A DNA stretch of 64,000 nucleotides from an uncultured Acidimicrobiia bacterium (GTDB lineage: Bacteria > Actinomycetota > Acidimicrobiia > Acidimicrobiales > JACDCH01), in assembly GCA_963821725.1 (NCBI GenBank), contig CAWGFA010000007.1, positions 71,914 through 135,913 of the forward strand, written 5' to 3'. How positions within the stretch are numbered: the stretch's first letter is position 1; the number at the start of each line of letters is the position of its first letter. Below, one piece after another: positions 24,200-42,511 of the stretch. A program made the position numbers and the translations under genes. The notes under the pieces were generated by a model. It searched no databases. It was not told where the DNA came from and was given only the letters and a program-made list of their open reading frames with translations.

Positions 24200-25521
24200 T
24201 TAGCCGAGCAGGGCCAGGATGTCGACCTGCTTGTCGTCGACAACGAACTCCGCCGTGCTCGAGTCCCAGTGACCCGTCCAGTACATCGGGTTCGACATTC
24301 CCTTGAAGATCGCGTTGGTCGACTGCTTCGACGGTGTCCACGGTGGCATGAGGTCGAACATCGGAATGTCCTTCGCGGCGTCGAAGGCCGCCTTGACGGT
24401 GGCGCGGTTGATGTCGGCGGGCTTTGCGTCTCGCATCACCTTCACGAGTGAGTACACCGCCAACCACCCATTGGTGGCCTGAGCGGTGACCGAGCCCTTG
24501 GTGAGGTTTGTTTTGCCGGCGGCTTTGAAGTCGTCCAGCATCACGTTGAAGATCGGCCATCGGGGCGAGTTCGCGACGACGGGCGGAACTGCGTCGGTGA
24601 AGGCCATGTTCGACTGGATTCCGGCGGGCAGGTCGGTGACGCCTTTCTGGGTGAGCGTCCCCCAACTGCTCGAGAACTTCAGTGGGCTGCTCAGCGAGTC
24701 GGCGGCGTCGAGGACCTGACTGGCGACGTTGCCCGGTAGGCCGAGGATCGCGCCGTCGGCGCCGTCGTTCTGGGCCTTGAGCACGAACTGAGTGAACTCG
24801 ACAGCCGTCGGCGGGATCTGAATGATCTCAAGCAGGTTCATGCCGAGGGCTTTGACGAGCGGGCCCGCGAACGCGGCCAGCGCTCCCGTTTGGCCTGTGA
24901 CCGGAACGAAGATGACGAACTTCTTGACCCCGACATTGTTGAGCGCCGGCATGCCCGCGAACAGGGTGCCGGACGCGCCCATGTTGAACTCGTAGCTGAC
25001 GGGCGAATTCCACCCCCCGGGCAGCGCCACCTGTGCGCCGACCTGCGGTAAGCCGGCCGACTCGAAGAGCTGGTACGCATCCCCCTCGCTCACCAAGAAC
25101 GTCGACGCGAGCCCGGCAACCATGCTGGCGTCTTCGGTCTCTTGGCGGGCGCACGCCAACTCCGTGGGACCGTCGCCCTTGCCGTCGCACACCTTGAGGT
25201 CCAAGCACCGGCCCGAGATGCCGCCGCGCGCGTTGAACGCTGCTACCGCCGCTTGCGTCCCGTCCACGTAGTCCTTCAGCGACGTGCCAGCGATGTCGAT
25301 TGGCTCGCTGATCCCGACGGTGACCTTGGGCTGGGAGGCGCTGCACGCCGGATCCTGCCAGCCGCCCAGCGCGACGAAGTCCGCCGCTCCCCCGCTACCG
25401 GGCGCAGGGCTGGACGAGCCGCCGCGGCCGTGTCGGTCTTCTTGTCGCTGCTGCACCCGACCACGAACGTGGCCAGCGCGACGAGCGCTGCCAGTACTCG
25501 GTAAGCGGATTTGCGTTTCAT
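24200..25521 (-). CDS. ABC transporter substrate-binding lipoprotein (LivJ-like fold), frameshift near 25430
   Basis: MKRKSAYRVLAALVALATFVVGC lipobox, AAVAAFNARGGISGRCLDLKVCD. Confidence 0.8.
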
Positions 25522-25619
25522 GTGTGTGGCCAAGCGCAGGTTTCGACGACATGGTCGTCGACGCTCACGAGGATCAATCCGTCCTTGTTCATCGGTCCCC
25601 CATCTGGTGGCGATCGACC
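25518..25619 (-). pseudogene. 5' fragment of amidohydrolase gene plus its leader (paralog of 31814-31890)
   Basis: 73/77 nt identical (25543-25619 versus 31814-31890). Reads MNKDGLILVSVDDHVVE then diverges, and its stop overlaps the SBP ATG. Confidence 0.85.
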
Positions 25620-25626
25620 GACGAGG

Positions 25627-26465
25627 TCACTCGCCGTCGATCAGGTCGGCCCAGGCGGCCTGGTGCCGACCGGTGTAGCGGGCGCCCTGGAAGCCGCCGT
25701 CGACGGCGAACACCTCGCCGGCCACGTAGCCGAGCCGCGGGCTGCCGAGCATCACGAGCGGCCACGCCTGCTCCTCGGCCCGTGCGTAGCGACCGATCGG
25801 TCCGACGGCCTGGTCCACGACCTCCTTGGTCGCGAAGTCCTGGAACGCCGGCATCATCGCCGTGTCGGTGGGCCCGGGGTTGATGCAGTTGATCCGGATG
25901 CCCGACGCCGCGAGGTCGGGGTACCAGTACCCGACCCACGCATCGACGACCCACTTCGAGAAGAGGTAGCCGCTCCAGGACCACTTCTCCTCGTTGGCCT
26001 CGAGCCACGCGACCGCCTCATCAAACCCTTCGGTCGCGAGGAGCGGTCCGATGGTCTCCATCTGGTCCCACCAGCCCGACCGCCGCCGATGACGAGATCG
26101 CCGAGATCGACGAGCCGGATCGCATCTTCGACACGAGCTGCTCGGCGAGATGACGAGCCCCGACGAAGTTCACCTTCATCGTGTCGAGCTCCGAGAACGG
26201 CGGGCCGGGCAGGCCGGCGCAGCTGAACAGGCCGTCGAGCGGGCCCTCGATCGCGGCGGCCGCTTCCTCGATCGCCGCTCGATCGCGGAGATCCACCTCG
26301 ATCGAACCGGGCTACGGGTACGACGGTGGGGTTGATGTCGATCGCCGTCACGTCGGCGCCGAGGTCGACGAGGATCTGCGCGGTCGCAGCCCCCATCCCC
26401 GATGCGGCGCCGGTGACCACCACCGCAGCACCCTGGTATCCGAGCACGTCGTCCATCGGTTGCAT
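25627..26465 (-). CDS. SDR oxidoreductase (coniferyl-alcohol/3-alpha-HSD-like), frameshifted
   Basis: VVVTGAASGMG, VNFVG, ISS, YLFSK, GIRINCINPGPTDTAM, VDGG. Confidence 0.85.
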
Positions 26466-26489
26466 TTAAGATGGTGATGACTATCTTCG
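26466..26489. promoter_or_regulatory. putative TetR operator (copy 1)
   Basis: TTAAGATGGTGATGACTATCTTcg in the 37-bp SDR/TetR divergent gap. 21 of the first 22 nt are identical to 31748-31769. Confidence 0.75.
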
Positions 26490-26502
26490 CAAGAGGAGCG
26501 AG

Positions 26503-27144
26503 ATGTCGAAGGACAGCGGCACGATTGCGAAGGCCACACGCCGGCCGCGGGGAGCGCCTCGGACGCTGCTCCTCGAGGCCGCTCGCACGCTGTTCGCCCG
26601 CCAGGACTACCGGAGCACCACCACCAAGGAGATCGCGGAGGAAGCCGGCGTCCTCGAGCATCTGCTGTTCCGGCACTTCGGTTCGAAGGCCGCCCTCTTC
26701 AACCAGGCTGTCGTCGTGCCGTTCATGCAGATCATCGACGACTTCAGCTCCAGGTGGGAGTCCTTGGTCCCGCGGCCGGAGAGCGCCGAGGCCGTCGGCC
26801 GCGAGTTCCTCGGCGCGCTCTACGACCTCTTCCTGGAGAACCGCGGTCTCCTGATGACCTTGTGGGCAGCGGACGCGCTGACCGAGGACGAGCTGGCCGA
26901 CACCGGGATCGCCGACATCGACAGCGCTATCGCGATCCTCGGCCAGCTCGGTGGGAAGGGCCTCGACATCCTCGGGATCCACGCGAACCACCAGGATCTC
27001 GCCGCTCGGTCGAACGTGGCCATGGTGGCCGGAATGGCTGCGTTCGGCGCCACGTTCTTCGGCGGAACCCGGCCACCGCGGGACGTCATCGTCGAGGAGC
27101 TCACGCAGGCCACGCTCCACGGCTTCCTCCATCGAGGCAGCTGA
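26503..27144 (+). CDS. TetR/AcrR family transcriptional regulator
   Basis: LLLEAARTLFARQDYRSTTTKEIAEEAGVLEHLLFRHFGSKAALF. GAGGAG RBS. Confidence 0.92.
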   Translation: MSKDSGTIAKATRRPRGAPRTLLLEAARTLFARQDYRSTTTKEIAEEAGVLEHLLFRHFGSKAALFNQAVVVPFMQIIDDFSSRWESLVPRPESAEAVGREFLGALYDLFLENRGLLMTLWAADALTEDELADTGIADIDSAIAILGQLGGKGLDILGIHANHQDLAARSNVAMVAGMAAFGATFFGGTRPPRDVIVEELTQATLHGFLHRGS

Positions 27145-27279
27145 CACGACGAGGACGGGCAGACCAGTGCGCTCAGCCGGCGCGACGGCGAGGGCGGGTG
27201 GCGTGCCCCGTTGCGACCCGCGGGCTCCAGTGCACCCTCGGGGCTGACAGTCAGTCGAAGACGTTCGCCGGGACGCGAG

Positions 27280-27446: not shown

Positions 27447-28457
27447 TCACGGTGCTCGCTCCTTGTAGCTGCGCTCAGCTGCGCGCTCGGGCGACGACAT
27501 GGACGGCTCTTTCGAGATAGGGCCAGGCGACGTCGGGTGCCAGCCCGCCGCAGAGCGGCAGCAGCGGCAGGATGGAACCGGCACGGATGAGGTCGATGGC
27601 CTCGTCGACGGTGACGATCCGATACGCAGCGGTCGTCGCGGAGCTCCTCGATGGTGGTGGCGGTGCTGATGCTGGCGACCGACGGTCTCGCCGTGGCGGT
27701 AGGACGCCGCGGTCATCGCGTCGTGCAGCAGGTGACGACCGAGTCTCGTCCCAGGCCGCGGTCGACGTCGTCGGCGACGAACATCACCGTCGCCGGCCGG
27801 GCGTCCGGGATCTGGACGAAGTCCCGGCTCGTGCCCGGCCTGCTCGGCACGCCTGCTCGTAGGCGTCGGCGAGGCCGGGCGTCGCGGATTGGGCGATCAG
27901 CCCGAGGCCGAAGCGTCCGGCCCGTCGAGCGCGCGGCGAGGCTCCCGCCGCCGATGAAGAGCTGCGGACCGCCGCTCGTCGGCGCAGGCGTGATGCGCGT
28001 CGATCGCGCGGCGTCCGCGACCTCGTCGCCGTCGCAGGAGTTCGAGCAGCATCGCCAGCTGTTGTCGGCCCGGGCGCCGCGACCTCGTCGGCTCGAGACC
28101 GAAGTGCGTCGAACTCCTCTCGTCGGTGACCGACGCCGAGGACGTACGACGACCCGACCGCGGCTGATGATGTCGAGCACGGCGATGTCCTCGGCCAGCC
28201 GGACCGGCTCGTAGAACGGCAGGACGACCGCGGCGACCAGGATCGGTAGCGTGCTCGGTGCGGGCCGCCATCGCCGCCGCGAGGACCAGATGGCGAGGGC
28301 AGGTGGCGGTCGTCCGGTCGCGTGGTGCTCGGAGAGCACGGCGACCACGGCACCGCGGCCCTCGGCCCACGCCGCCATGTCGATCGCGGCGGCGTAGAGG
28401 TCCTCGATCGGCGGCGCCCCAGTCGGGCGCCCGCATGTCGAAGCGAAGGGTGAACAT
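27447..28457 (-). CDS. LLM-class flavin-dependent oxidoreductase (many frameshifts)
   Basis: MFTLRFDMRAP, VLSEHH, LPFYEPVRLAEDIAVLDIISRGRV, GGGS..AARRAGRFGL. Confidence 0.8.
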
Positions 28458-28463
28458 CGTCGG

Positions 28464-29576
28464 TCAGACGCGGAAGGACGTGTCGGGGAACGGTGAGCGG
28501 CATCTCCAGCGACCGCAGCAGGCCAGGCTCGGCGTCGACCACGTAGGGCACCGCGTTCACGACGCGCATGGCGGTGGCCAGCATGGCGCCGGCGCCGCTG
28601 CCCATCGTCGGGATGCCCGCCTCGGCCGGGTCGTCGAGGGTCGGCGTGAACCAGCAGTCGAAGTTCGGCTTGCCTTCGAGCACGACCCGGTACGTCAGGT
28701 CGGCCTCGCCGATGGGCCAGTCGGTGCCGACGTGGCGGGCGAGGCGGGTGATGTGGTCGATGACGATCGCCTCGCGACCGTCGACGACGCCGATCGCCTG
28801 GAAGCGGATCGCACCGCTGGTGCCGGGTTCGACCGTGCCGAAGGCGGTCTCGATCGGCTGATCGGTCAGCCGCCGGTCGTAGGTCTCGCGGATCTCGTCG
28901 ATCTCGACGCCGAGACCGTCGGCGATGAAGCGGACCTGGCCCTGGAACTCGCCGGCGATGGCACCGGGCAGCATGATCCACGGCTCGAAGTCCAAGCGGC
29001 TGACCGAAGCCGAGCGCGTCGACCATGATCTCCTTGACGCCGTAGTCGTCGTAGAGCGCGATCTCGTAGCAGTGGATCTTGCAGACCGACCGGGACGCGG
29101 TGGACAGGACCAGCGGGAGGTAGTCGCACAGGAAGCCCGGGCTCGATGCCCGAGGCGTAGATCGACGCTCCCCCGGCGCGCGCCGCCGCCTCGAGGCGCT
29201 CGCGGTGCGCCGGCACGTAGGCGAACGGGTTGATCAGGGTCGTCGACGTCGTCGTGACGACGTTGACCCCGGCGGCGAGGATCCGTTCGTAGTCGGGCAC
29301 GGCGCCGGCGTCTCGGTCCGGTCCGCTCGCCGCGTAGATCACGCAGTCCGGCTCGAGCGCGAGGAGCGCGTCGACGTCATCGGTCGCCGTCACGCCGATC
29401 GGGACGCCGTTGGCCAGCTCCCCGGCGTCGCGGCCGACCTTGTCGGCGGAGTGGACCCACACCCCGACGAGCTCGAGGTCGGGTCGTTCGTTCACGGCGA
29501 CGATCGAGAGCGATCCGATCCCCCCCGTCGACCAGACGACGACGCGCTTCACGTCTCCTGATGCTGCCTCGGTCAT
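28464..29576 (-). CDS. dihydrodipicolinate-reductase-like NAD(P)H-dependent amine dehydrogenase family protein (frameshifts)
   Basis: KRVVVWSTGGIG, LELVGVWVHSADKVGRDAGEL, ASGIEPG, ATAMRVVNAVPYVVDAEPG. Confidence 0.82.
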
Positions 29577-30795
29577 GGCTGCTCCTCTTCGGTTCGGCCG
29601 GACGGGCAGGTAGCCCCACCCGCGGACGCTGGCGGTGTGGGCCATCTGCCCTCGGTCGACGTCGACGTCCCACTCCGGCCAGCGTCGCAGGATCTCCTCG
29701 AGCGCGACGCGGCCCTCGAGCCGGGCGAGCGCGGCGCCGAGGCAGAAGTGGAGCCCGTAGCCGAACGACCAGGTGCGGCGCCCTCGTCGCGGTGGACGTC
29801 GAAGCGATCGGGTTCGCGCCAGTGACGCTCGTCGCGGTTGGCGGCGCCGTTCAGGAGCAACATGATCGAGCCCTCGGGGACGATCGTCCCGTGCAGCTCG
29901 ACGTCGCGCTGCACCCACCGCGCCTGCACCGGCGACGGCGACTCGAGCCGCAGGATCTCCTCGATCGCGGTCGGGATCGAGCGACGGGTCCTCGACGAGC
30001 AGACGTCGCTGGTCCGGGTGCTGGGCGAGCAGCTGCATCGTGAACCCGATGAGGCGGGTCGCCGTCTCGTTGCCGGCGCCGGCGACCATGCTGGCGTAGG
30101 TGACGACCTCGTCTCGGGTGAGCGGACGCCGCGACCCGTCGGGCTCGTCGACCTCGGCGTTCAGCAGCTCGGTCATGAGGTCGTCGGACGGGTTCTGCGA
30201 ACGCCACTCGACGTAGTCGCCAGCACGGACAGGACCGCGTCGAACGACGACTGGTCGAACGAGATCGGCGCGCCGTCGGTGGCGATCGCGTCGTCGGTGC
30301 TCTTGCGGTACACGTCCTGATCGGCCTCGGGGATGCCGAAGAGGAAGCCGATCGTGCGCAGCGGGATCTCGACGCCGAACTCGGCGATGATGTCGAACTC
30401 GTCCCGGCCGACGGAGCGCGTCGAGCGCCCGGACGCTGTAGCTCCGCACCAGCGGCTCGAGGTCGAGCATCCGCCGGGGGGTGAAGACCCGCGACAGCAG
30501 GGCCCGGTGCGCGTCGTGGATCGGCGGATCCTCGAAGAGGAGGATCCCCGGTGGGATCTCGACCCCGGCCTTCACGATCTCGAGCACGGTGCCGCGCCCG
30601 GAGCGGTAGGTCTCCCAGTCGAGCAGCGCCGGCTTGACGTCGTCCCACCGGCTCAGCGCCCAGAACTCGTGCTCCTCGTTCCGGTACAGCGGCGCCTCGT
30701 CCTGGAGGCGCGTCCAGGTCGGGATAGGGGTCGTCGTCGATGTCGACGTCGTAGGGGTCGTAGCGGACCGCTGATGCGGGGGTCGTCGGCGTCAC
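29573..30795 (-). CDS. cytochrome P450 (frameshifts)
   Basis: YDPY...DPY, DPPIH...R, AGAGNETAT, E..R, AANRDERHW, heme motif FGYGLHFCLGAALARLE. Confidence 0.9.
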
Positions 30796-31615
30796 GCTGT
30801 CCTTCGATCGCTGGTCGTCCGGTGGCCACCGTGCGGCTGGTTCTGCACGCCGGGGAACAGCTGCTCGGTCGGGCCGGCGGTGACGTCGCCCCGCAGCTTC
30901 GTGATGAGGTGGGGCGCGAACACCGCCAGGTAGAGGACGTGGCCGACGACGACGACGGCGACGATCGACAGGAGCGCCGACGTCAGGCGGCTCGTCGTCC
31001 TCGAGTCGGCCCAGATCTCGATGACGTTGCGACCGTCCGCATCGGTCCGGCCGAGCAGGTAGGCGAACACCATCATCTGCAGCGCCATCGCGATCGCGTC
31101 GTAGACCGGGTACTGGTGCTTCGTGCCCTCGAAGATCGCGAGCCCGGGGATCACGCGGCCGTAGTAGAAGACGCCGAGGCGGGCGCCGAGCATCGCGTTG
31201 AACAGCAACGCCCACACGAAGCCGACGGCGAAGCCGACGCCCAGCAGCGCGAGCGGCCGCCGCCACCCGAACCTCGCGCTCGCCCGGCGCCCCAGCGCCG
31301 CACCGATCACCGCCGGCAGCACGAAGTAGGACGATGTAGCCGATCGGCACCGACGCCGGCAGCCCACCCCAGGTCATGTTCATCGGCCACCACGACGGCA
31401 TCCGCGGGATCGCCGGACGGGAACTGCGCGTACATCGCCCAGTCGTACGGCGCCTCGATCCACGAGATCGCGATGGCCGAGATGCACACGAGCAGCAGCG
31501 GGTGCAGGCGACGGCGCCGCCAGCTGAGGTAGATCCCGGCGACGAGGAACGCGATCCCGCCGACGTAGGCGAACGCGATCGACGCCGTCAGCAGCGGCGT
31601 CAGCTCGTCGTTCAC
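30792..31615 (-). CDS. AveC/spirocyclase-like multi-TM membrane protein (frameshifts)
   Basis: Multiple TM helices, SWIEAPYDWAMYAQF, FYYGRVIPGLAIFEGTKHQYPVYD. Shares the Y..VIP....G...Q[YF]P..[DE] motif with 38956..40087. Confidence 0.7.
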
Positions 31616-31624: not shown

Positions 31625-31729
31625 TCACCGTCCGCGGTCGCGACGCGCTTCCGGGTCGAACCGGAGCACCAGACCGACGATCAGGACGATCACGCCGAAC
31701 AGCGTGCCGAGCATGATCGCAGCACCCAT
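31625..31729 (-). CDS. 34-aa single-TM microprotein
   Basis: MGAAIMLGTLFGVIVLIVGLVLRFDPEARRDRGR*, first gene of the leftward operon, GC-rich third positions. Confidence 0.6.
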   Translation of the reverse strand: MGAAIMLGTLFGVIVLIVGLVLRFDPEARRDRGR

Positions 31730-31747: not shown

Positions 31748-31771
31748 TTAAGATGGTGAGGACTATCTTAA
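31748..31771. promoter_or_regulatory. putative TetR operator (copy 2)
   Basis: TTAAGATGGT-GAGG-ACTATCTTAA palindrome between the two divergent operons. Confidence 0.78.
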
Positions 31772-31840
31772 CCAACGGCGGCTTGGGTCCGTCTTGGACG
31801 CGGCGGGCCGATTGGTCGATCGCCACCAGATGGGGGACCG

Positions 31841-33131
31841 ATGAACAAGGACGAATTGATCCTGGTGAGCGTCGACGATCACGTCGTCGAGCCGCCAGAC
31901 GTCTTCGAGAAGCACCTGCCGGCGAAGTACCAGGAGTTCGCTCCGAAGCTGAAGGAGCGGGAAGACGGCACCCTCGCCTGGTACTACTACGACCACGTCA
32001 TCACCAACGTCGGGCTGAACGCGGTGGCCGGTCGACCACGCGAGGAGTACGGCATCGAGCCGACCCGCCTCGACGAGATGCGCGCCGGGCTGTTGGAACG
32101 TCGACGAGCGCATCAAGGACATGAACGCCGGCGGCGTGCTCGGGTCGCTCTGCTTCCCGTCGATGCCGGGCTTCGCCGGCCGGGTCTTCGCCTCGGCGAA
32201 CGACGACGACATCGCGACCGCGATGGTCAGGGCGTACAACGACTGGCACGTGTACGAGTGGTGCGGCACGCACCCGGGCCGGTTCATCCCGCTCGGCCTC
32301 CCGATGATCTGGAGCGCGGAGGAGACGGCCAGGGAGGTGCACCGCCTGGCCGACATGGGCTGCCACGCCATCACGTTCCCCGAGAACCCGACGCCGCTCG
32401 ATGCGCCGTCGCTCCACGATCCGTACTGGGATCCGTTCTGGCGGGCGCGCGGAGGAGCGGGGGACGGTGATCTGCATGCACATCGGCTCGTCGTCGAAGC
32501 TGGCGATGACCACGCCCGATGCGCCGGTCGACGTGTTGATCACCCTGCAGCCGATGACGATCGTGCAGGCCGCGGCCGACATCGTGTGGAGCCGGGTGCT
32601 GAAGGAGTTCCCGAACATCAAGATCGCGCTGTCGGAGGGCGGCATCGGTTGGGTGCCGTACTTCCTCGACCGCATCGAGCGCACCTACGACATGCACCAC
32701 CACTGGACCGGCCAGGACCTCGGGGGTCTGACGCCCGACGGAGCGGTTCCTGAAGAACGTGCTGCTGTGCTTCATCTCCGATCCGGTCGGGCTGCGACCT
32801 GGTCGACGGATCGGTTCGGAGAACGTCAGCTGGGAGATGGACTACCCCCACTCCGACTCGTCGTGGCCGACCGGGCCCGAGGACCTGCACCGCGACATCA
32901 CCAGGGCCGGGACTCGGCGACACCGACATCGACGAACATCACCCATCGCACGGCGATGCGTGGTTCGACTACGACCCGTTCGAGCACATCGCGAGGGAAT
33001 CGGCGACCGTCGGCGCCCTTCGCAGCCAGGCCGAGGGCCACGACGTCGCCATCCGCTCGATGGGTCGGGGAGCGATGGGCGGCAGCGGGCTCAACATCGC
33101 CGAGCTCGCCAAGACCACCGAAGGGCGCTGA
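31841..33131 (+). CDS. amidohydrolase family protein (amidohydro_2; frameshifts)
   Basis: SVDDHVVEPP, RAYNDWH..EWC, ICMHIGSSS, IALSEGGIGWVPY, WEMDYPHSDSSWP. Confidence 0.9.
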
Positions 33132-34348: not shown

Positions 34349-35294
34349 GTGGCTCGCCAGATCGCTCCGATCGACTTCGCCGGCCAGGTCGCCATCGTGA
34401 CCGGTGCCGGCCGCGGTCTGGGGCGGCTCTACGCCCTTGATCTGGCTCGTCGTGGTGCATCGGTCGTGGTCAACGACCTCGGCTCCTCGATGGACGGAGA
34501 CGGCCGCGACACCTCGGTGGCCGACGCCGTCGTCCGCGAGATCGAGACGGCCGGTGGCTCCGCCGTCGCGTCGCACGACTCCGTCGCCACGGCCGAGGGT
34601 GCCGGCAGCCATCGTCGCAGCGGCGACCGAGTCGTTCGGAGGGGTCGACGCGGTAGTCAGCAACGCGGGCATCTTCCAGACCCGTCCGTTCGACGAGCTG
34701 TCGGCCGACGATTGGGACCGGATGCTCCGGGTGCACCTCGACGGCGCCTTCCACGTCAGCCAGGCCGCCTACCGGGTGATGAAGGCCCAACAGGGCGGAC
34801 GGTTCGTGTTCATCGCCTCCTCCGCGGGCCTCTTCGGCCAGCCCAACTCGGGGCACTACGCAGCGGCGAAGGCCGGGATACTCGGGCTGGCGAACGTCGT
34901 CGCCATCGAGGGCGCTGAGCACGGCATCCGGGCGAACACGGTGCTCCCGTTCGGTGAGTCGCGCATGGCCACCGAGACCATCGGCGACGACGTCGACGCG
35001 GTCCGGGGCTTCCTCGACGCCATCGGACCGGAGCTGGTCGTGCCGATGGTCGTCTACCTCGCCAGCCGCTCGTGCACGTTGACGCACGAGGTGTTCTCCG
35101 CTTGTGCTGGGCGCTTCGCGAGAGTGTTCGTCGGACTGGCCGAGGGATGGGTCGCGGAGCGCGGCACATCGCCAGCGGCGGAGGACATCGCCGCGCACCT
35201 CGACGAGATCAGGGAGCCAGAGCCGTACGCCATCCCCACGTCGATAATCGACGAGGTGGCCCAGATCCTCGACCGGCTGCAGATCTCGTTGTGA
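34349..35294 (+). CDS. SDR oxidoreductase (MFE-2/3-hydroxyacyl-CoA dehydrogenase-like), frameshift near 34600
   Basis: [25 protein letters not shown]. Confidence 0.88.
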
Positions 35295-37022
35295 GCAGCG
35301 ACACCGACCTCCGCCCTCTCCAGATCCTGGCGTCTGCGATCGCCGGTCGGTCGGTGGAGGTCGCTCCGGCGACGACGGGGACACGCACGTGGACCGACGG
35401 GCGCACGATCTTCCTCGAGCGCGATGTCGCCCATCGCGACCGGCTGCGGCTGCTGGGCGTCCAGGCGTCGCTGCTGGCGGGGGGCAGCCTCGCGCCCGAG
35501 GTCGTCGCCGAGCTGGGCGGCCGGCGCGCCCTCGCTGACCGCTACCTCGCCGTCGAGGGGCACCGCGCCCTCGCCGCGAACGACGTCGCCCTCCCGCCGT
35601 GGATGCGGTCGATGATCGACCGCGCAGTGGCCGGTCGACTCGACTCGCCGGCAGCCTCCTTGGCGCTCGCCCGTCACGATCGGACCCTCCAGCCGGCGTG
35701 GGCGTTCGGCGCGATCGATGCGCGCCGGGTGACGTCGAACGTCGAGCGGGCGGGCCTGACGCGGCCGCTCGATGCGGGCTCCCGCTCCGAGCCGATCGAC
35801 CCCGCTGACCTCGAAGTGCTCGACGATGACGACGCCGAAGATGCCGCGCCCCATCTGGGCAACATGCTGTCGAGCCCCGTCGGTGGGGGCGGCGCCGTCG
35901 GGCGGCTGATCGCGAAGCTGCTGCGGCCGACCCGAGCGCGCGACGGCGGTGGGGACCCGGGCGCGGACGCCCCGACGCACCTGTCCCGGGCCCGACCGAC
36001 GGCCGGTCGGACGATGGTCTCGCTCGTGACCGGTGGTGCGACAATCGATGGGCCCGATCTGCAGGCAGCGTCGACGCACGTCTATCCCGAGTGGGACGAG
36101 CGCCGTCACGCCTACCGGCCCGACTGGTGCCACGTGCACGAGGACGTGGCCGACGCCGGCTCGGGCTCCTCCGTGGACCTGCCCGATGGTGTCGCGCTGC
36201 GGCGGGCGCTGGCGCGGCTCGGCACCGAGCTGGTGCCGTGCCGCCGGCAGCGCCAGGGTGGGGATCTCGACATCGACGCGATCGTGCAGGCGCGCGTCGA
36301 CCGCCTGGCCGGTGGGCCCCTCGTCGAGGACGTCTACATCGACAGCCTTCGACGGTCCCGCGCCCTCTCCGTGCTCGTGCTCCTGGACGTGTCGGGATCG
36401 GCCGCCGAGCCAGGGGTGGCGGGCCGCACTGTGCACCAGCACCAGCGCGACGCCGCGGCCGCGCTCGTCACCGCGCTGCACCGGCTCGGGGATCGCGTCG
36501 CGCTGCATGCCTTCAGCTCGCGTGGCCGAACTGCCGTGCACCTGACGCGCGGTGAAGGGCTTCGACGACCGCCTCGACGACGTCGTCGCCCGCCGCCTCG
36601 ACAGCCTGCAGCCCGGTGCCTTCACCCGACTCGGCGCCGCCATCCGGCACGGATCGGCGCTCCTCGAGGCCGGCGGCGGCACCCCACAGCGGCTGCTCGT
36701 CGTGCTGTCTGACGGGTTCGCGTACGACCACGGCTACGAGGGCGGTCATGGCGAGGCCGACGCCCGTCGGTCTCTCCTGGAGGCCCGTCGGCGCGGCATC
36801 GGCTGCCTGTGCCTCAGCGTGGGCGCCGACGCCGACCGCGCCGCGCTCCAGCGCGTCTTCGGCACCGCGGCCCACGCCGCTGTGCCCACCAGCGACCACC
36901 TGCCGGCGTCGATCGGACCGCTGTTCGCCGCTGCGCTGCGCTCGGCCGCGGCCCAGCGACGGAGCTCCCAGCGCACCGAGCGCACACGCGGGCGGCTGCG
37001 GATGGACCGCGGGCAACGATGA
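35291..37022 (+). CDS. NorD/CbbO-type von Willebrand A domain protein (frameshift near 36550)
   Basis: YPEWD...[49 protein letters not shown]. Confidence 0.87.
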
Positions 37023-37838
37023 CCGAGTCGACGCGGCCGTACTACGTCCCCGTCGGCAACGAGGAAGCTGTCTTCTCGGCCGCCCACCGCCAGGGGCTCG
37101 CCCTCCTGCTCAAGGGCCCGACTGGGTGCGGCAAGACGCGCTTCGTGGAGGCGATGGCGCACGATCTCGGGCGGCCGTTGATCACGGTGTCGTGCCATGA
37201 CGACCTCACCGCGGCTGACCTGGTCGGGCGCTTCCTCCTCGACGGCGGCGACACCACGTGGGTCGACGGCCCGCTCACCCGGGCGGTGCGCGAGGGAGCC
37301 ATCTGCTACCTCGACGAGATCGTCGAAGCCCGCCAGGACACCACGGTGGTCATCCACCCGCTGGCCGACCACCGCCGCCAGCTTCCGATCGACCGGCTCG
37401 GCATCGTCCTCGACGCCGCGCCCGGCTTCGGGCTGGTCGTGTCCTACAACCCCGGCTACCAGAGCGTCCTCAAGGACCTGAAGGACTCCACCCGCCAGCG
37501 CATGGTTGCCATCGAGCTCGACTTCCCACCGGCGGACGTGGAGGAACAGGTCGTCTGCCACGAGGCGGGCATCGGGCATGACCAGGCGGCGCAGCTCGTC
37601 CATCTCGCTCGACGCGATCCGCCGCGTCGAGCACGCCGGGCTGCGCGAGGTGGCTTCGACGCGGGTGCTGATCGCTGCTGGACGCCTCGTCGCCGACGGC
37701 CTGCCGCTCCTCGAGGCGGCCCGGGCCGCCGTCGCGGGACCGTTGACCGACGACCCTGCCGTGCTGGCGGGGCTCCACGAGATGATCACCAGCTACCTGG
37801 CCGACGCAGAGTCGGATGCGACCAACGGGGGGATGTAG
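37019..37838 (+). CDS. CbbQ/NirQ/NorQ-family MoxR AAA+ ATPase (frameshift near 37605)
   Basis: Walker [27 protein letters not shown], Walker [46 protein letters not shown]. Confidence 0.93.
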
Positions 37839-38952
37839 GTGGCCTACGAGAGCGATGCCGAGCCCATCAAGATGGGCTACCTCATGGACTTCCGCCTGCC
37901 GGACGGGTTCCCAGATGACCGGCGGGCGGACCTGACCGATCCGTTCGACCACGTGTTCCAGGAGGGGTTCGAGCAGGGGGTGATCGACCGGCCGGTCGAG
38001 ATCATCTACCGCGAGGTCGAAGGCTTGCCCAAGGGGTCCGTGAAGGCCGTCATCGACGCCTACGGGGAGCTCGTCGAGGAGGGCTGCCTGCTGGTCTTCG
38101 GCCCGTCGATCACCGACAACGCCGAGCCGACCAAGGTCGCGATCGAGGAGCGCTTCCGCGTGCCGGCCATCAGCGTCACCGGCTCGGAGCAGTGGCTGGG
38201 CGAGTGGACGTTCTCGTTGTCGATGGGCTCGATGAGCGACGAGCCGATCTTCTGGGCCGACCTCATCGCCAAGCGCGGCATCGACAACGTCGGTGTCCTG
38301 GTGGAGCAGTCGCTCGTCGGGGACAGCTACATCGAGCAGTTCCGACGCGCGTGCCGCACCAAGGGCATCCGCATCGTGGCCGAAGAGCAGATCCCCCAGA
38401 CGGCCAAGGACGTCACCGAGCAGGTGAAGCGGCTGCACGATGCCGGCGTCGACTCGGTCGTCCACTGCGGCTTCGGGTTCGGCGTCGTGCTCGTCGGCTT
38501 CGCGATGGAAGCCCTCGGATGGGACCCGCCGCGTTTCATGGGCACGTCGTTCCAGAACGCGTGGCTCAACGAGATCGTCTGGAACGCCATGGTCGGCTGG
38601 ATCGGCATCGACCAGTACGACGCCGAGAACCAGCGTCGGCCAGGAGTTCCTCGATCGTTACGCCGAGCGCGTCGGGCGCCGGCCGGAGTGGTGCGTACCG
38701 GTGGTGAACCGCGACCTTGCCGTGGCATTGCTGCAGGCGTTCGCCGACGCGCGACCGCTGTCGCCGGCCGGCGTCCGCGACGCGCTCGAGCGGGTGAAGA
38801 TGTTCCCCGCCGCCTCCGGCGCGCCAGGCACCCGGATCTCGTTCGGCAGGTACATGCACCGCGGGTGGATGGGTCCGGGCTACCTCGTCGCCCGGCAGCT
38901 CGATCCCGACGGCGTGACGGCCCACACGGTCGACCGCTTCGGGGAAGCCTGA
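37839..38952 (+). CDS. periplasmic-binding-protein type 1 (LivJ-like) protein without signal peptide (frameshift near 38630)
   Basis: [48 protein letters not shown]-terminus acidic and non-hydrophobic. Confidence 0.78.
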
Positions 38953-38955
38953 GCC

Positions 38956-40087
38956 GTGGCAACCACCCAGCTCGCCCCACCGGCCGTCGAAGCCGACGCC
39001 GTCCGTCCGTTCCGGCTGACGCCGGCGCGCGCTGTCGGTCTCTGCATCGTCGTCGCCGCGCTGATCGCTGTTGCGATCGCTGCTCGCCACGGTGCGGTCG
39101 CCGATCGGATCCGGAACCCGCTGGTCGACGGCGCGCCGCGCCCGGTCGAGCCGCTGTTCGGCTTCCACGGGTGGATCACGCTCCTCCAGATCGGCACCGT
39201 CGTGATGATGGTGGTCCTGGTGACCGTGTTCGTCGTCGGGTGGCGCCGCAAGCCGGGCAACCCCGTCCTGCTCATGGTGCTGGCCACCACGCTTCTCGTC
39301 TGGCAGGACCCGATCATGAACTGGGCGCCCTACGCGGTCTACAACCCGCAGCTCTGGCACTGGCCCGAGACGTGGCCGCTGGTGTCGCTGTCCCCCACGG
39401 TCGAGCCGTTCATCGTGATCGGCTACGCCACCTTCTACATGGCGCCGTTCTTCCCGGCGTCGCGGATCCAGCGACGCATCCAGGCCGGCAAGCCCCTCGA
39501 TCACTTCGTCTGGCGCCATCCGCTGATCACGCTGTCGCTGCTGATCCTGGCTATCGGGTTCGTGTTCGACGCGTTCCTCGAGATCTTCCTGGTCCGCACG
39601 CAGCTGTACATCTACTCGCACGTGATCCCGTGGGGGTCCTACGCCGCCGGCAAGTGGTACCAGTTCCCACTGCTCTGGGAGTCCGCACTCGTTGCCACCG
39701 TGATGATCCCGGCTGGCGTGCTGCTCTACAAGGACGACACCGGCAAGACCCAGGCCGAGAAGCTGGCGCAGCGGGCGGGCTGGCTCCGCACCCGGCCGGC
39801 GCTCGGCACCTTCGCCGTCATGTTCCTCGTCGTCAACCTCGGGTACTTCGTCGTACGGCGGTGCCTTCGCGCTCATGAAGGACACCGGGGCGGCGTCCTC
39901 GGTCGCCTGTCCGTGGCCGTACCCGGAGGCGAAGGTCTACGACCCGCAGGGTTTCTACGAGGAGGCCGGGCAGCAGGGCCCGTACTTCCCGGGCATCTGG
40001 TCGGGGTGGCAGAGCGCCCAGCCCGACGGGCGACCCGACGTCCATCCACCGGCCGACGGCGGGCGGTGCGGGCCCAGCGATGGCTGA
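38956..40087 (+). CDS. AveC/spirocyclase-like multi-TM membrane protein (frameshift near 39855)
   Basis: VWQDPIMNWAPYAVYNP, FDAFLEIFLVRTQLYIYSHVIP..GKWYQFPLLWE, CPWPYPEAKVYDPQG. Confidence 0.78.
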
Positions 40088-41027
40088 CCCTCGCAGCGTG
40101 GTCGTCACCGGCGCCTCGCGCGGCCTGGGGCGAGCGACCGCTGCGCACCTCCACCGCGCCGGGTGGACGGTGCTCGCGGCGATGCGCAACCCCGAACGCG
40201 ACCTCGCGGGTGTTCGGGCGGATGCAGGGGCTGTCGACGGTGACTCGCGACTCGTCCCGATCCGGCTCGACCTCGACGACGAGGCGTCAGTCGACGCGGC
40301 TGCGGGCGAGATCATCGAGCGCGTCGGCTCGCCCGACGGCGTCGTGCACAACGCCGGTGTCGCAGGAGTCGGCAGCATCGAGGAGATGCCCGTCGAGATG
40401 TGGCAGCAGATCTTCTCGACCAACCTGTTCGGTCCTGTCCGGCTGACCAAGGCGTTGCTCCCAGCGATGCGTGCCGCCGGCCGCGGTCGCATCGTGCTCG
40501 TGTCGAGCCAGGGCGCCATCCGTGGGATGCCGGCCATCGGCGCCTACTCGGCGGCCAAGGGCGCCCTCGAGCGTTGGGGCGAGTCGCTCTCTCACGAGAT
40601 CGCACCGTTCGGCCTCGGCGTGTCGGTGATCGTCGCCGGCACCTTCAAGACGGACATCCTCGAGCTCACCACCACATGGGAGGACACGAGCGGGCCGTAC
40701 GCGCCGATGCACCTCGGCCTCCGTCGCACAGGCGACCGGATCATGCGCATCGCCCGCCCTCCGAGGACCTTCGCCCCGGCCGTCGAGAAGGCCCTCGCCG
40801 ACTCCGGGCCGATCCGGCGCCGGGCCGTCGGCATCGACGCCCAGCTCCTGCACTATGGGAGCCGCTTGCTCCCGGGCCGGCTGCTCCACCGCATCACCAG
40901 CACCGCCGTGGGGATCCCCGGACCGGGTTCCTTGCGCGGCGACCCTCGCCGGCACGCCGGCGTGTTCCCCGACATCGCCGAAGCCGATGCCGGCGCCACC
41001 GATCGACACGAGGCAGGAGAACCATGA
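40080..41027 (+). CDS. SDR oxidoreductase
   Basis: TGASRGLG, HNAG, LVSS, YSAAK. Confidence 0.92.
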   Translation: MADPRSVVVTGASRGLGRATAAHLHRAGWTVLAAMRNPERDLAGVRADAGAVDGDSRLVPIRLDLDDEASVDAAAGEIIERVGSPDGVVHNAGVAGVGSIEEMPVEMWQQIFSTNLFGPVRLTKALLPAMRAAGRGRIVLVSSQGAIRGMPAIGAYSAAKGALERWGESLSHEIAPFGLGVSVIVAGTFKTDILELTTTWEDTSGPYAPMHLGLRRTGDRIMRIARPPRTFAPAVEKALADSGPIRRRAVGIDAQLLHYGSRLLPGRLLHRITSTAVGIPGPGSLRGDPRRHAGVFPDIAEADAGATDRHEAGEP

Positions 41028-42511
41028 CCGCAGGCACCACGCCCCACCACGAGTCGCGCATGCTGATCGACGGCAAGCTCGTCGAGGGTCAGAGCGGGAC
41101 GTTTCCAGTCGTCAACCCCGCGACCGAGCAGGTCATCGGCGAGGCGGGCGACGCCTCGACCGCCGACATGCAGCAGGCGATCGGCGCGGCCCGCCGCGCC
41201 TTCGACGACACCACCTGGTCGACCGATCGCGCGCTTCCGCAAGCAGTGCCTGCTCCAGCTCCAGACGGCGCTGGAGTCCGAGCAGGAAGAGCTCCGCGAG
41301 GAGCTCATCCTCGAGGTCGGCTGCCCCCGGATGGTCACACACGGCCCCCAGCTCGACGCGCCGCTCAGCGATGGCCTCCGGCACCCGATCGAGCTCATCG
41401 ACTCGTTCGCCTGGGAGGAGGACCTCGGCGATGCGATGGTCGACCTCACCGGGATGATGACCAGCCGAAAGGTGTGGCGCGAACCCGTCGGCGTTGTCGG
41501 CGCGATCGTTCCGTGGAACTACCCGTTCGAGGTCTCGATCCACAAGCTGGGCCAGGCCCTGAGCACCGGCAACACCGTGGTACTGAAGGCCGCTCCCGAC
41601 ACGCCGTTCAACGCCACTCGCATCGGTCGTCTCGTGGCCGAGCACACGGACATCCCCGCCGGCGTCCTCAACGTCGTGACGTCGTCTGATCACCTCGTCG
41701 GTGAGGAGCTCACGTTGTCCGACAAGGTCGACCTCATCTCGTTCACCGGATCAACCGCCGTGGGCAAGCGGATCATGGAGAAGGGGGCGGCGACCATGAA
41801 GCGCCTCTTCCTCGAGCTCGGCGGCAAGTCGGCCGCCGTGATTCTCGACGACGCCGACCTCGCGACGGCCACGATGATCGCCTTCGGGGTGTGCATGCAC
41901 GCCGGGCAGGGCTGCGCGACCCCCACGCGAATGCTCCTCCCCCGCTCGCGCTACGACGAGGCGGTCGAGATGCTGACGGGCATCTACGAGTCCGTCGTCC
42001 CCGGAGACCCGCAGGCGCGACGACACCCTCTGCGGTCCGGTGATCTCGGCCAAGCAGCGGGACCGGATCATCGGTTACATCCAGACGGGGATCGACGAGG
42101 GCGCCAACTTGCTGGTCGGCGGCACGGAGCCGCCGGACGGGCTCGACACCGGCTACTACGTGTCACCGTCACTCTTCGTCGACGTCGACAACTCGATGAC
42201 GATCGCCCGCGAGGAGATCTTCGGTCCGGTGCTCGCCGTGATCCGGTACGAGGACGAGGAAGACGCGATCCGGATCGCGAACGACAGCCCGTACGGGTTG
42301 GCCGGGTTCGTCTTGTCGAGCTCTCTCGATCGCTCGACGGCCGTCGCGCCGACGTCTGCGCGCCGGGACCATCGGGCTGAACGGCGGGGCCGCCTACGGC
42401 GCAGAGGTGCCCTTCGGCGGCTTCAAGGACAGCGGCGTCGGGCGCCAGAACGGCACCGCCGGCTTCGCCCAGTATCTGGAGACCAAGTCGGTGGCCTGGC
42501 CCGCCGGCTGA
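41024..42511 (+). CDS. aldehyde dehydrogenase (frameshifts)
   Basis: [47 protein letters not shown]. Confidence 0.9.

Follow-up and report, generated by a model that had tools for sequence, protein, structure and literature searches.

The NorQ/NorD chaperone pair loads iron into nitric oxide reductase, and in the tailoring of avermectin AveC acts together with a P450 (AveE) and an SDR (AveF). NorQD is proposed to bind acidic surface residues of cNOR via its MIDAS, and its known client is a membrane protein that is reached from the cytoplasmic side (PMC13036017). PMC9976466 describes NorD and CbbO as having N-terminal domains that are unrelated to each other and specific for their targets. According to PMC13303154, AveC, the founding member of its family, is a catalytic spirocyclase/dehydratase, and there is no solved AveC structure for comparison.

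Here we compare these systems with a divergent gene cluster in a window of 64,000 nucleotides from a soil Acidimicrobiia-type draft assembly (4.19 Mb, 38 contigs, 72% complete), which does not belong to a mycobacterium. The cluster had been predicted to be uncharacterised, and no characterised counterpart was found in the literature searched or in the PDB.

Organization of the gene cluster

A Pfam search of the window found all gene classes listed in the original prediction, at about the places claimed for them. The rightward arm (+ strand) consists of Amidohydro_2, P450, SDR, VWA, AAA_5, Peripla_BP_6, AveC_like, SDR, and Aldedh genes. The leftward arm (− strand) begins with a 34-amino-acid hydrophobic microprotein, followed by four genes with Pfam matches: AveC_like, P450, DapB_N/DAP_DH_C, and Bac_luciferase. 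A satellite unit carries a TetR_N gene on the + strand as well as a split SDR gene and a Peripla_BP_6 gene on the − strand.

Among the enzymes of the rightward arm, P450 number 2 (33137–34345, 402 amino acids, p450 E = 4e-25) is intact and matches a P450 of genome G037 in one frame (69% identity over 398 amino acids); its closest solved relatives are CYP125, CYP101D5, CYP143, and P450cam. SDR2 (40080–41027, adh_short E = 6.1e-45) is also intact, with a single-frame match to its ortholog. The amidohydrolase (Amidohydrolase_2, PF04909, E = 3.8e-10; 31843–33131) is spread over at least three frames, and SDR1 (34370–35294, adh_short E = 5.1e-30) has a frame break at about 34606. The aldehyde dehydrogenase (ALDH; 41009–42514, limits approximate) gave Aldedh matches in three frames, with breaks at about 41233, 42014, and 42348. 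The best NCBIfam match of its G001 ortholog is the Rv0768-type family TIGR04284 (698.8 bits, E = 3.9e-210), at a score below the family cut-off of 775 bits; the model is of the type "hypoth_equivalog," the function of the Rv0768-type family being itself hypothetical.

The leftward enzymes are all split between frames, so that their limits are approximate. P450 number 1 (29590–30790) has a C-terminal p450 match (E = 5.2e-10) and shares 70% DNA identity with G004 across 29615–30763. The NAD(P) dehydrogenase of the DapB_N/DAP_DH_C type (28470–29555) matches DAP_DH_C in one frame (E = 1.8e-11) and DapB_N in another (E = 8e-05), and the luciferase-like monooxygenase (LLM; 27450–28465) matches Bac_luciferase (E = 2.2e-07) over profile positions 19–177 only. 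In the satellite unit, the solute-binding protein (24200–25552, − strand; PF13458, E = 1.7e-25) is encoded by an open reading frame of 450 amino acids with an approximate N-terminus, and the SDR (25627–26465, − strand) lies in two frames, with its N-terminal adh_short piece in 25857–26465 and its C-terminal adh_short_C2 piece in 25630–26169.

In line with the expectation that the locus contains no PKS or NRPS, the contig yielded no ketosynthase match, and a search of the 72%-complete genome turned up no condensation domain. Genes next to the cluster have housekeeping roles, coding for a DNA polymerase III delta-type subunit and for topoisomerase I.

Origin of the frameshifts

At each of the eight mapped break sites, the window carries one base more than the contigs of independent soil runs, of which between one and four showed the difference at a given site. 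The base is absent in all four runs at 34606, 37611, and 38634 and in three or four of them at 41233, 42014, and 42348, whereas at 31331 and 31411 it is absent in the run X4 contig only. Comparison with G037 orthologs placed additional breaks at about 36555 and near the 3' end of the AveC2 gene. The frameshifts are thus most likely assembly errors; given that the extra single bases are missing from independent soil contigs, the cluster is probably intact in nature and the system probably functional in this organism. A set of decaying pseudogenes with real frameshifts appears very improbable to us, even though the breaks amount to about one per kilobase across the cluster while rpoB is a single open frame of 1282 amino acids, the breaks sit outside long homopolymers, and the soil contigs come from relatives approximately 95–99% alike rather than from the assembled strain. 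These contigs lack exactly one base at the mapped sites, with all four runs agreeing at four sites, three of the four at one, and a single run at the two AveC1 sites. Every change has the same direction, which is the signature of error. Frame splits also affect genes for cytochrome oxidase subunit I outside the cluster, and the assembly is only 72% complete despite its mere 38 contigs. Repair of the frameshifts, originally proposed as a first step, proved unnecessary, because intact orthologs are available in G037 and G005 for study of the system.

The NorQ/NorD-type pair and the binding-protein-fold protein

The vWA protein (35318–37022, + strand, VWA_2 and VWA matches, break at about 36555) and the MoxR AAA+ ATPase of the NorQ/CbbQ type (37025–37808, + strand, AAA_5 E = 2.9e-32, break at about 37611) had been assigned to the NorQ/NorD type, and searches with their G001 orthologs supported this assignment (E = 1.3e-90 against solved NorQ and 5.2e-41 against solved NorD). 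The AAA+ protein aligned with NorQ over its full length (residues 2–256 of 260). The vWA protein carries a DxSxS MIDAS motif and aligned with NorD over residues 220–541 only, corresponding to the linker and VWA part; its first approximately 220 residues did not match NorD. As in the NorQ/NorD system, the two genes are adjacent to each other and to a gene for a membrane protein. Unlike in that system, their order is D then Q, their neighbors are AveC-like, PBP-like, P450, SDR, and ALDH genes, and nitric oxide reductase genes were found neither in the cluster nor among its recurrent neighbors. The cluster NorQ-type gene was the only one found in the genome. The ATPase of the CbbQ/CbbO Rubisco activase belongs to the same MoxR subfamily (PDB 6l1q and 5c3c, E of about 1e-88), and that system, as described in PMC9976466, shares the logic by which the N-terminal domain of the vWA adaptor sets the target. 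The recurrent neighbors of the cluster, unlike CbbQ/CbbO, provide no Rubisco or carboxysome context, and when the vWA sequence was searched against the PDB, only two NorD-type chains and no CbbO chain were returned.

The downstream PBP-like protein (37839–38952, + strand, break at about 38634) has a type I PBP fold (Peripla_BP_6, PF13458, E = 2.5e-14). It shares the two-lobe fold of LivJ/LivK-type binding proteins of ABC importers (TM of about 0.78, Foldseek E down to 3e-19) at an identity of only 13–18%, and a sequence search of the PDB yielded no solved relative at E of 0.01 or better. Unlike LivJ/LivK-type proteins, it lacks a signal peptide, the start coinciding with the conserved N-terminal motif in 44 of 44 orthologs. 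Mean column identity among orthologs was 76%, and clustering of neighboring open reading frames revealed no ABC transporter genes recurring near the cluster core.

AveC-like membrane proteins and the microprotein

Both membrane proteins were confirmed as AveC-related, with PF17198 scores of 195 and 189 bits against a cut-off of 26.6. The shorter, AveC1 (30792–31615, − strand, approximately 260 amino acids, E = 8.5e-56), is interrupted by single-base frame breaks at about 31331 and at about 31411 and aligned with its G037 ortholog in three collinear tblastn pieces. The longer, AveC2 (38956–40036, + strand, end approximate, E = 1.4e-57), is 65% identical to its G037 ortholog, with frame changes close to the 3' end. 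AveC of Streptomyces avermitilis thus belongs to the same Pfam family as both proteins, and it works with a P450 and an SDR, the same three families that sit together here. Unlike the AveC system, the cluster lacks a polyketide synthase context, as judged by the ketosynthase search of the contig and the condensation-domain search of the genome, and, unlike AveC, the AveC-like subfamily is tied to NorQD, the PBP-like protein, and a microprotein. The latter is a 34-amino-acid single-helix membrane protein (MGAAIMLGTLFGVIVLIVGLVLRFDPEARRDRGR) encoded just upstream of AveC1 (31625–31729, − strand); in 17 of 18 loci a homologous small open reading frame adjoins the AveC1-type gene, mostly 8 nucleotides upstream.

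The structure model of AveC2 showed seven helices with high confidence (pLDDT of 92.6), and a structure search found no match of its fold among solved enzymes. K and R together accounted for a fraction of 0.21 of the residues in the N-terminal part and in loops 2, 4, and 6, compared with 0.07 in loops 1, 3, and 5 and the C-tail. On the predicted sidedness, loop 6 would be cytoplasmic; it contains a near-invariant acidic R-D-D-x-G motif (D in 44, D in 43, and G in 47 of 48 sequences). Further near-invariant polar residues are D115, N119, H132, Y154, D202, and D326. Near-invariant residues are located mostly on the predicted outer face, in loop 3, the ends of helices 3 and 5, and the C-tail. AveC2 contains no His-rich or Cys-rich metal-site motif and just one near-invariant His.

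Conservation and distribution

We collected 80 loci by similarity to AveC2, of which 59 were well flanked (at least 5 kb on both sides). Given this choice and the many related genomes, the loci are not independent, and their counts are to be read accordingly: NorQ was present in 55 of the 59, NorD in 53, the PBP-like gene in 47, and a P450 gene within 10 kb in 58, with the order vWA-AAA-PBP-AveC retained in 39. SDR2 (34/59), ALDH (20/59), and AveC1 (15/59) were less frequent. Unbiased clustering of open reading frames recovered the same families. The conserved core has five parts, a NorD-like vWA protein, a NorQ-like AAA+ protein, the PBP-like protein, a seven-helix AveC-like protein, and a P450; SDR and ALDH genes usually follow it, and AveC1 with the microprotein is a frequent addition. 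The amidohydrolase, DapB-like, and LLM genes are variable accessories, with fragments at 40% identity or more in 6, 5, and 2 of the 80 loci, respectively; contigs of all four soil runs skip the amidohydrolase gene, with 31771 joined to 33038 and 1266 bases passed over. The predicted co-occurrence across genomes thus held for the core, whose genes are linked in many genomes, mycobacteria included, but conservation does not extend to the whole of the 18-kb cluster.

The module is common to hundreds of bacterial species, its carriers including Acidimicrobiia, Mycobacterium, Mycolicibacterium, Nocardia, Frankia, Ketobacter, Binatia, and Gemmatimonadaceae. Orthologs of AveC2 (at least 58% identity), the PBP-like protein (at least 73%), and NorQ (at least 82%) occurred in the same 5 of 41 related genomes. 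Another genome, G010, carries on one contig a divergent AveC-like gene and, at a distance of approximately 1.3 kb, a NorQ gene with 71% identity, and G009 (97% complete) has two AveC-like matches at 30–35% identity and no NorQ match at E of 1e-30 or better. Four well-flanked gammaproteobacterial loci contain NorQ, NorD, and AveC2 and lack the PBP-like gene. The Ketobacter version of the cluster holds a FadL/TodX outer-membrane channel and also a DAP_DH_C protein.

Operator-like palindrome and TetR regulator

The predicted palindromic operator at 31748 was present as an exact match to TTAAGAT-N10-ATCTTAA (TTAAGATGGTGAGGACTATCTTAA; 31748–31771) in the divergent promoter region between the arms. 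A second copy (26466–26489) between the satellite SDR and TetR genes bears out the idea that the satellite unit shares the operator, with the reservation that this copy has two mismatches. These two matches in the window compare with 0.00 expected (100 shuffles). The TetR-family regulator (26503–27144, + strand, TetR_N E = 4.5e-16) is intact and 60% identical to a G037 TetR over 201 amino acids in one frame. The other loci, 1.6 Mb in all, gave five more matches with up to two mismatches; they represent four other genomes, because L017 and L025 both contain one and the same G037 site. The palindrome was within 1.5 kb of a TetR, AveC1, or P450 gene in all three annotated loci, and beside AveC1 in L078.

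Proposed function

We tentatively propose, with a probability of about 0.42, that the cluster is a TetR-repressed divergent island that serves to process oxidatively, and most likely to degrade, a membrane-partitioning hydrophobic compound. The steps below are drawn from family membership and gene order. The AveC-like proteins would perform acid/base chemistry of the AveC kind on a membrane substrate, such as cyclisation, ring opening, dehydration, or hydration; the original prediction of a catabolic role with isomerase/hydratase activity for these proteins is kept here as a hypothesis. The P450s would hydroxylate the substrate, the SDRs and ALDH would convert alcohol to aldehyde to acid, and the PBP-like protein might hold a lipophilic intermediate in the cytoplasm. 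The NorQD-like machine may treat the AveC-like protein in the way that NorQD treats membrane-bound nitric oxide reductase: its MIDAS site would dock from the cytoplasm onto the near-invariant acidic R-D-D-x-G loop, and the AveC-like protein would then be opened or matured at the expense of ATP, through insertion of a metal, cofactor, or ligand. Regulation would fall to the small TetR protein, which would bind the palindrome at both promoters and be released by the substrate or an intermediate. The FadL/TodX channel of Ketobacter speaks for a hydrophobic substrate. Against this reading, the near-invariant residues of AveC2 lie mostly on the face predicted to be outside, whereas NorQD, the PBP-like protein, P450s, SDRs, and ALDH are cytoplasmic; AveC2 lacks a typical His/Cys-rich metal motif; and AveC-like genes can exist without NorQ, as in G009.

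The P450 neighbor is as constant (58/59) as NorQ (55/59), and co-occurrence therefore leaves the client of the NorQD-like pair unsettled. The pair might serve the P450 or the PBP-like protein, with the AveC-like protein a mere membrane anchor or substrate channel. The absence of an obvious metal-binding motif from AveC2 fits such an arrangement, as does the 76% mean column identity of the PBP-like protein, which is more what one expects of an enzyme, or of a subunit of a complex, than of a protein that simply binds a ligand. We nevertheless consider it unlikely, given that the four gammaproteobacterial loci retain NorQ, NorD, and AveC2 without the PBP-like gene. To our knowledge, well-studied P450s all fold and acquire haem without NorQD-type chaperones. 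In addition, AveC2 has a conserved acidic loop predicted to be cytoplasmic, and the known NorQD client is a membrane protein approached from that side (PMC13036017). The core could otherwise be a device for uptake or extraction, with the AveC-like protein as conduit, the PBP-like protein as cargo receiver, and the NorQD-type pair as ATP motor, oxidation following afterwards. A binding-protein fold is usually linked to transport and is here cytoplasmic without recurrent ABC transporter genes, the AveC2 fold matches no solved enzyme, and FadL/TodX is linked in Ketobacter. Yet this role seems unlikely, since near-invariant Asp, His, Asn, and Tyr residues in AveC2 suit catalysis. We know of no MoxR/vWA system that drives transport. 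None is described in the portions of the NorQD papers used here (PMC13036017 and PMC9976466), and AveC itself is catalytic according to PMC13303154.

Rather than degrading an imported compound, the cluster might tailor a lipid of the cell's own membrane or envelope, or else a secondary metabolite assembled by genes at another place in the genome. The families of avermectin's AveC, AveE, and AveF are co-located here, and the neighboring DNA polymerase III and topoisomerase I genes are of a housekeeping kind. The AveC role invoked is that given in PMC13303154. The contig gave no ketosynthase match and the genome no condensation domain, and we regard tailoring as rather unlikely: TetR control, ALDH, and the FadL/TodX link are more typical of accessory catabolic islands, as is the patchy spread of the module across 5 of 41 relatives and to Ketobacter, Binatia, and Gemmatimonadaceae.

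Gene content of the cluster and its surroundings

Contig 7, from which the window is taken, belongs to a 4.19-Mb genome that comprises 38 contigs and is scored as 72% complete. Its GC content is approximately 0.64 to 0.73, and simple ORF lists were full of spurious frames; Pfam profile scans were run on stop-to-stop ORFs of the window, and they bore out the gene list of the original prediction. From 31.8 kb, the plus strand carries, in order, genes for Amidohydro_2, a P450, an SDR (SDR1), a vWA protein, an AAA_5 ATPase, a Peripla_BP_6 protein (PBP-like), an AveC_like protein (AveC2, E = 1.4e-57), a second SDR (SDR2), and an aldehyde dehydrogenase (ALDH). From 31.7 kb, the minus strand carries a 34-amino-acid hydrophobic microprotein, identified from the sequence, followed by a second AveC_like gene (AveC1, E = 8.5e-56), a P450, a DapB_N/DAP_DH_C dehydrogenase, and a luciferase-like monooxygenase. 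Further to the left lies a satellite unit, in which a TetR gene on the plus strand diverges from SDR and Peripla_BP_6 genes on the minus strand. The right flank is of a housekeeping nature (a DNA polymerase III delta-type gene, an MFS transporter, and topoisomerase I), and a weak Fic_N match under the cut-off (E = 5.9e-4) was seen just right of the cluster at 42634–43215 (plus strand). At 12573–14174 (minus strand), a strong match was obtained to the N,N-dimethylformamidase beta-subunit-like C-terminal domain DMFA2_C (E = 3.7e-111), and an FkbM-type methyltransferase gene (14090–15052) adjoins it.

Conservation and distribution of the core module

The AveC/DUF5135 family comprises 371 clusters at 50% identity. 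A scan of reference genomes with AveC2, with one genome per species, gave 248 stretches, 231 of which were confirmed as relatives, and the best 80 of these 231 loci were fetched. According to their titles, eight of the 80 are from outside Actinomycetota: five from Ketobacter or other gammaproteobacteria and one each from Binatia, Gemmatimonadaceae, and a deltaproteobacterium. Neighbors were counted by tblastn with the cluster proteins at an identity of at least 40%. Among the 80 best loci, the AAA+ (NorQ-like) protein was present in 70, the vWA (NorD-like) protein in 65, and the PBP-like protein in 64, followed by SDR2 (45), SDR1 (38), ALDH (29), AveC1 (19), and the small TetR of the window (11). 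When only the 59 loci flanked on each side by 5 kb or more were kept, the 21 dropped loci being short or at a contig end, the counts were 55 for NorQ, 53 for NorD, 47 for the PBP-like protein, 58 for any P450, 34 for SDR2, 20 for ALDH, and 15 for AveC1, with the gene order vWA-AAA-PBP-AveC kept in 39 of the 59. The expectation that the cluster co-occurs in other genomes thus held for its core genes but not for the amidohydrolase, the DapB-like dehydrogenase, or the luciferase-like monooxygenase, query fragments of which matched in 6, 5, and 2 of the 80 loci, respectively.

Clustering of all 1340 called ORFs, in which the window was not used as a reference, recovered the same families and revealed as further recurrent neighbors a nitroreductase (15 loci), a SnoaL-like protein (10), and an acyl-CoA dehydrogenase (9). 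It also turned up a 424-amino-acid protein with two TetR_N domains (57 loci, L025–L104), which is the most frequent regulator in the vicinity of the core and is distinct from the small TetR of the window. The PBP-like gene was absent from all four well-flanked gammaproteobacterial loci; AveC2, SDR2, NorD, and NorQ were kept in these loci, and AveC1 was found in two. One Ketobacter locus additionally contained a FadL/TodX outer-membrane channel, a P450, and a DAP_DH_C dehydrogenase.

As a check independent of the choice of loci, orthologs of AveC2, the PBP-like protein, and NorQ were sought in 41 related genomes. All three fell in the same five genomes: that of the window (G000) and four others (G001, G004, G005, and G037). 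In another relative, G010, one contig carries a divergent AveC-like gene and, approximately 1.3 kb away, a NorQ gene with 71% identity; G009 has AveC-like genes at 30–35% identity and no NorQ at an E value of 1e-30 or better. No other NorQ-type gene was found in the genome of the window, and plasmid records gave no AveC2 match by tblastn. Metagenome-assembled genomes of Acidimicrobiia and Actinomycetota make up both the relatives of this genome and the named records in which the nearest copies of the cluster occur; the organism is not a mycobacterium.

AveC-like membrane proteins

Both membrane proteins proved to be AveC-related, as had been predicted: AveC2 scored 195.2 bits and the COOH-terminal piece of AveC1 189.4 bits against PF17198 (AveC_like), for which the gathering cut-off is 26.6, and they were the only matches in a whole-genome scan. 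Functional AveC, a spirocyclase/dehydratase, works on a polyketide intermediate within a PKS cluster, whereas no ketosynthase match was found on the contig of the window, no condensation domain was found in the 72%-complete genome, and the cluster is wholly occupied by other gene families.

Orthologs of AveC2 are 362 to 377 amino acids long, and a model of that from G037 showed seven long helices with a pLDDT of 92.6. Charge counts across 48 family members favored an N-in, C-out topology, in which the loop bearing the near-invariant R-D-D-x-G motif is cytoplasmic. Most of the other positions that hardly vary (D115, N119, W120, H132, W137, Y154, D202, and D326) lie towards the outer face, and no metal-binding motif was evident in AveC2. 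AveC itself is described as being without a solved structure in the available text of PMC13303154. A PDB sequence search with AveC2 gave nothing at an E value of 1 or better, and a Foldseek search with the model gave a best E value of only 0.12, with no convincing solved counterpart. In a wide search with VIA-align, the best match was a mycobacterial Insig homolog (4xu4_A; Z = 6.0, 135 residues aligned, rmsd of 4.1); given that this Z score is under the significance guidance for helical bundles, we do not claim that the two are related or that the fold is new. The best ESM Atlas scores outside PF17198, 0.78 and 0.75, were to unnamed clusters and serve as leads only. Complex prediction for AveC2 with the PBP-like protein gave a score of 0.22 against a mark of 0.32, which is evidence neither for nor against binding.

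The NorQD-like pair and accompanying proteins

The ortholog of the AAA+ protein in G001 matched solved NorQ (9qhd_A) with an E value of 1.3e-90 over residues 2–256 of 260, which assigns it to the NorQ/CbbQ group; CbbQ is matched nearly as well. The protein has the Walker motifs GPTGCGKT and hydrophobic-DE. Its gene abuts that of the vWA protein in the window, and the latter protein has a MIDAS-type DVSGS motif. The G001 ortholog of the vWA protein matched NorD (9qhd_G) with an E value of 5.2e-41, residues 220–541 aligning to 319–643. In contrast, no counterpart of the NH2-terminal domain of NorD was detected in residues 1–219 by PDB sequence search. The NH2-terminal domains of NorD and CbbO are described, in the available part of PMC9976466, as unrelated and target-specific. 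Unlike NorQ/NorD, whose client is encoded by norCB, the core has no gene of the haem-copper oxidase family among its recurrent neighbors, and the COX1-family matches of the genome are on other contigs than the cluster. For NorQD, the accessible text of PMC13036017 proposes MIDAS docking on acidic surface residues of nitric oxide reductase, with ATP-driven twisting that opens the client for metal insertion.

The model of the PBP-like protein (pLDDT of 89.2) showed a two-lobe Venus-flytrap fold of the LivJ/LivK type, and it matched LivJ, LivK, and aromatic-acid binders by Foldseek with E values of 3e-19 to 1e-15 and TM scores of 0.7–0.78 at 13–18% identity. Type I periplasmic binding proteins are exported and partner an ABC importer, whereas the PBP-like protein is without a signal peptide, with 44 of 44 orthologs starting at a conserved motif, and no ABC genes are among the recurrent neighbor families of the core. 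Mean column identity of the PBP-like protein is 76% across phyla, and a PDB sequence search with it gave nothing at an E value of 0.01 or better.

The P450s of the cluster are ordinary class I enzymes with CYP125, CYP142, CYP143, and CYP101 as the nearest groups. For the ALDH, the nearest family is the Rv0768 type (TIGR04284), although the G001 ortholog scored 698.8 bits, under the cut-off of 775.

Microprotein and putative operator

In 17 of 18 loci, an AveC1-type gene is immediately preceded by a small ORF homologous to the 34-amino-acid peptide, in most cases at a distance of 8 nt; these loci include those of Mycobacterium, Parafrankia, and Ketobacter. The palindrome TTAAGAT-N10-ATCTTAA is present at 31748–31771, between the two main arms, and a copy with two mismatches is present at 26466–26489, between the TetR gene and the satellite SDR. 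The two matches in the window compare with 0.00 expected from 100 shuffles, consistent with the suggestion that the satellite and main promoters share an operator. With up to two mismatches allowed, the 1.6 Mb of fetched loci contained five matches, two of which (L017 and L025) represent the same site of G037. In L025, L052, and L096, the palindrome lies no more than 1.5 kb from a small TetR gene and from an AveC1 or P450 gene; the copy in L078 adjoins AveC1. The regulator of the window has a TetR_N domain (E = 4.5e-16), with the inverted repeat at its own and putative target promoters. On these comparisons, we take the microprotein and the operator-like palindrome to be real features, with binding of TetR being predicted.

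Proposed mechanism

The component parts come from known families, and their combination matches no described system in the literature and PDB searched. For AveC-like or AveC-family proteins, the literature search returned only a taxonomic signature paper (PMC5819568). No paper was found under DUF5135 or PF17198 in the literature searched, which also gave nothing relevant for NorQ/vWA with P450 or in Mycobacterium operons. To our knowledge, MoxR/vWA chaperone pairs are common and few have known clients. We presume that the cluster is a further case of such a pairing of chaperone and client, in which the client would be a membrane protein of the AveC family, set inside a P450/SDR/ALDH oxidative module.

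These comparisons establish which gene families are present, that they are closely and widely linked, where the operator sites lie, and what topology is predicted. In the mechanism that we propose, TetR would repress the pathway, the AveC-like proteins would act within the membrane on a hydrophobic substrate, the P450s would hydroxylate it, and the SDRs and ALDH would oxidize it to an acid, with the PBP-like protein holding an intermediate in the cytoplasm. By analogy with the proposed action of NorQD on nitric oxide reductase, the NorQD-like machine would act on the AveC-like protein, for which the conserved acidic cytoplasmic loop of AveC2 is a candidate docking site. NorQD-type machines might then have a third client class beside nitric oxide reductase and Rubisco, namely a seven-helix AveC-like protein without a solved counterpart fold. 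This protein, the microprotein, the cytoplasmic binding-fold subunit, and a P450 would make up an ATP-matured, membrane-embedded, possibly metal-dependent enzyme complex that attacks a common hydrophobic natural compound in soil Actinomycetota and some hydrocarbon-degrading Proteobacteria. We hold this reading tentatively, at a probability of roughly 0.3. Against the proposed mechanism are the lack of an evident metal motif in AveC2 and the position of most of the conserved AveC2 residues on the side away from the cytoplasm, as well as the finding that a P450 is as constant a neighbor as NorQ (58 versus 55 of the 59 well-flanked loci). The idea that the cluster opens spiroketals in sapogenin catabolism was left unsupported; no steroid-ring genes are among the recurrent neighbors. 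A paper on diosgenin in Mycolicibacterium HK-90 describes a steroid cluster, SCG-2; a term search of its main text turned up no spirocyclase, membrane protein, or "hypothetical" entry, and its gene list, in a figure and supplements outside the search, may still hold an AveC-family gene (PMC10880577).

A conserved and genetically tight pairing of NorQD with an AveC-like protein would provide a new, tractable client for MoxR/vWA pairs and, outside avermectin-type biosynthesis, would open the AveC/DUF5135 family to functional study for the first time. The core module, whose function we infer, is well defined, widespread, and open to experiment.

Frameshifts and the amidohydrolase gene

Nearly every cluster gene in the window is split over frames. 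With the use of tblastn and intact orthologs from relatives, breaks were located at approximately 31331 and 31411 in AveC1, 34606 in SDR1, 36555 in the vWA gene, 37611 in the AAA+ gene, 38634 in the PBP-like gene, and 41233, 42014, and 42348 in the ALDH gene. Comparison of AveC2 with the intact G037 protein showed that the frame is kept to approximately residue 344 and changes only close to the 3' end; a break at approximately 39660 suggested by the G001 ortholog was rejected because the G001 gene is itself shifted there. G001 is 96% complete in six contigs, and its AveC2 ortholog (L014:2015–2947, on contig C4) is out of frame past approximately residue 240, which may be either an assembly frame error or a real break.

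Breaks of this kind might reflect errors of assembly or decay of the genes. The rpoB gene of the genome is a single open frame. Genes of the cytochrome oxidase subunit I family on other contigs (C27:94782–96123 and C21:141669–142783) also fall into several frames, adding to the evidence for indel errors assembly-wide. The breaks lie outside long homopolymer runs, a check that does not discriminate error from decay, and ORF coverage based on GC3 per 10 kb did not set the cluster region apart from the rest of the genome. Twenty soil or rhizosphere runs from 20 studies each hold 33–47% of the sampled words of this DNA; with close relatives of the DNA in these runs, the pathway may matter for soil turnover of some abundant hydrophobic compound. 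Contigs from four of the 20 runs were aligned to the window and were mostly 95–99% alike. Exactly one base was missing from the run contigs at 34606, 37611, 38634, and 42014 (at sole depth, in all four runs or nearly so), and one base was missing at 42348 in four runs, at 41233 in three, and at 31331 and 31411 in one. For the vWA site and the AveC2 3' end, the gap counts of spanning contigs would likewise fit breaks. Among the indels listed, with 11 further ones outside that list, the extra base was always on the side of the window. Given this uniform difference, we conclude that the frameshifts are assembly errors and the genes intact in the natural population, with a small doubt remaining because the contigs come from close relatives that are not provably the same strain. 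Assembly errors behind the apparent pseudogenes of this draft genome are relevant to anyone annotating it.

The same contigs revealed a larger difference. In all four runs, a contig joins 31771 straight to 33038, with sides of 128–255 bases, and skips the 1266 bases at 31772–33037. The amidohydrolase stop codon is at 33129–33131, just ahead of the P450 start at 33137, and approximately 90 nt of the 3' end of the amidohydrolase gene are kept upstream of the P450 gene in the contigs of the relatives. This retained 3' end makes the gap look like a deletion in the relatives rather than an insertion in the window. Judged from these alignments, the amidohydrolase appears as an optional part of the cluster, subject to a whole-gene presence/absence polymorphism.

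In the satellite binding protein (approximately 24203–25552, minus strand), the first ~70 residues look non-native and of low complexity ahead of a possible lipobox-like Cys, and there could be another indel near the 5' end of its gene. One run had a 12-base insertion behind 42535. Summed contig depth at 42006–42600 was 127–221 in all four runs, compared with approximately 5–30 elsewhere, probably as a result of a conserved end of the ALDH gene or of a repeat common to other organisms.
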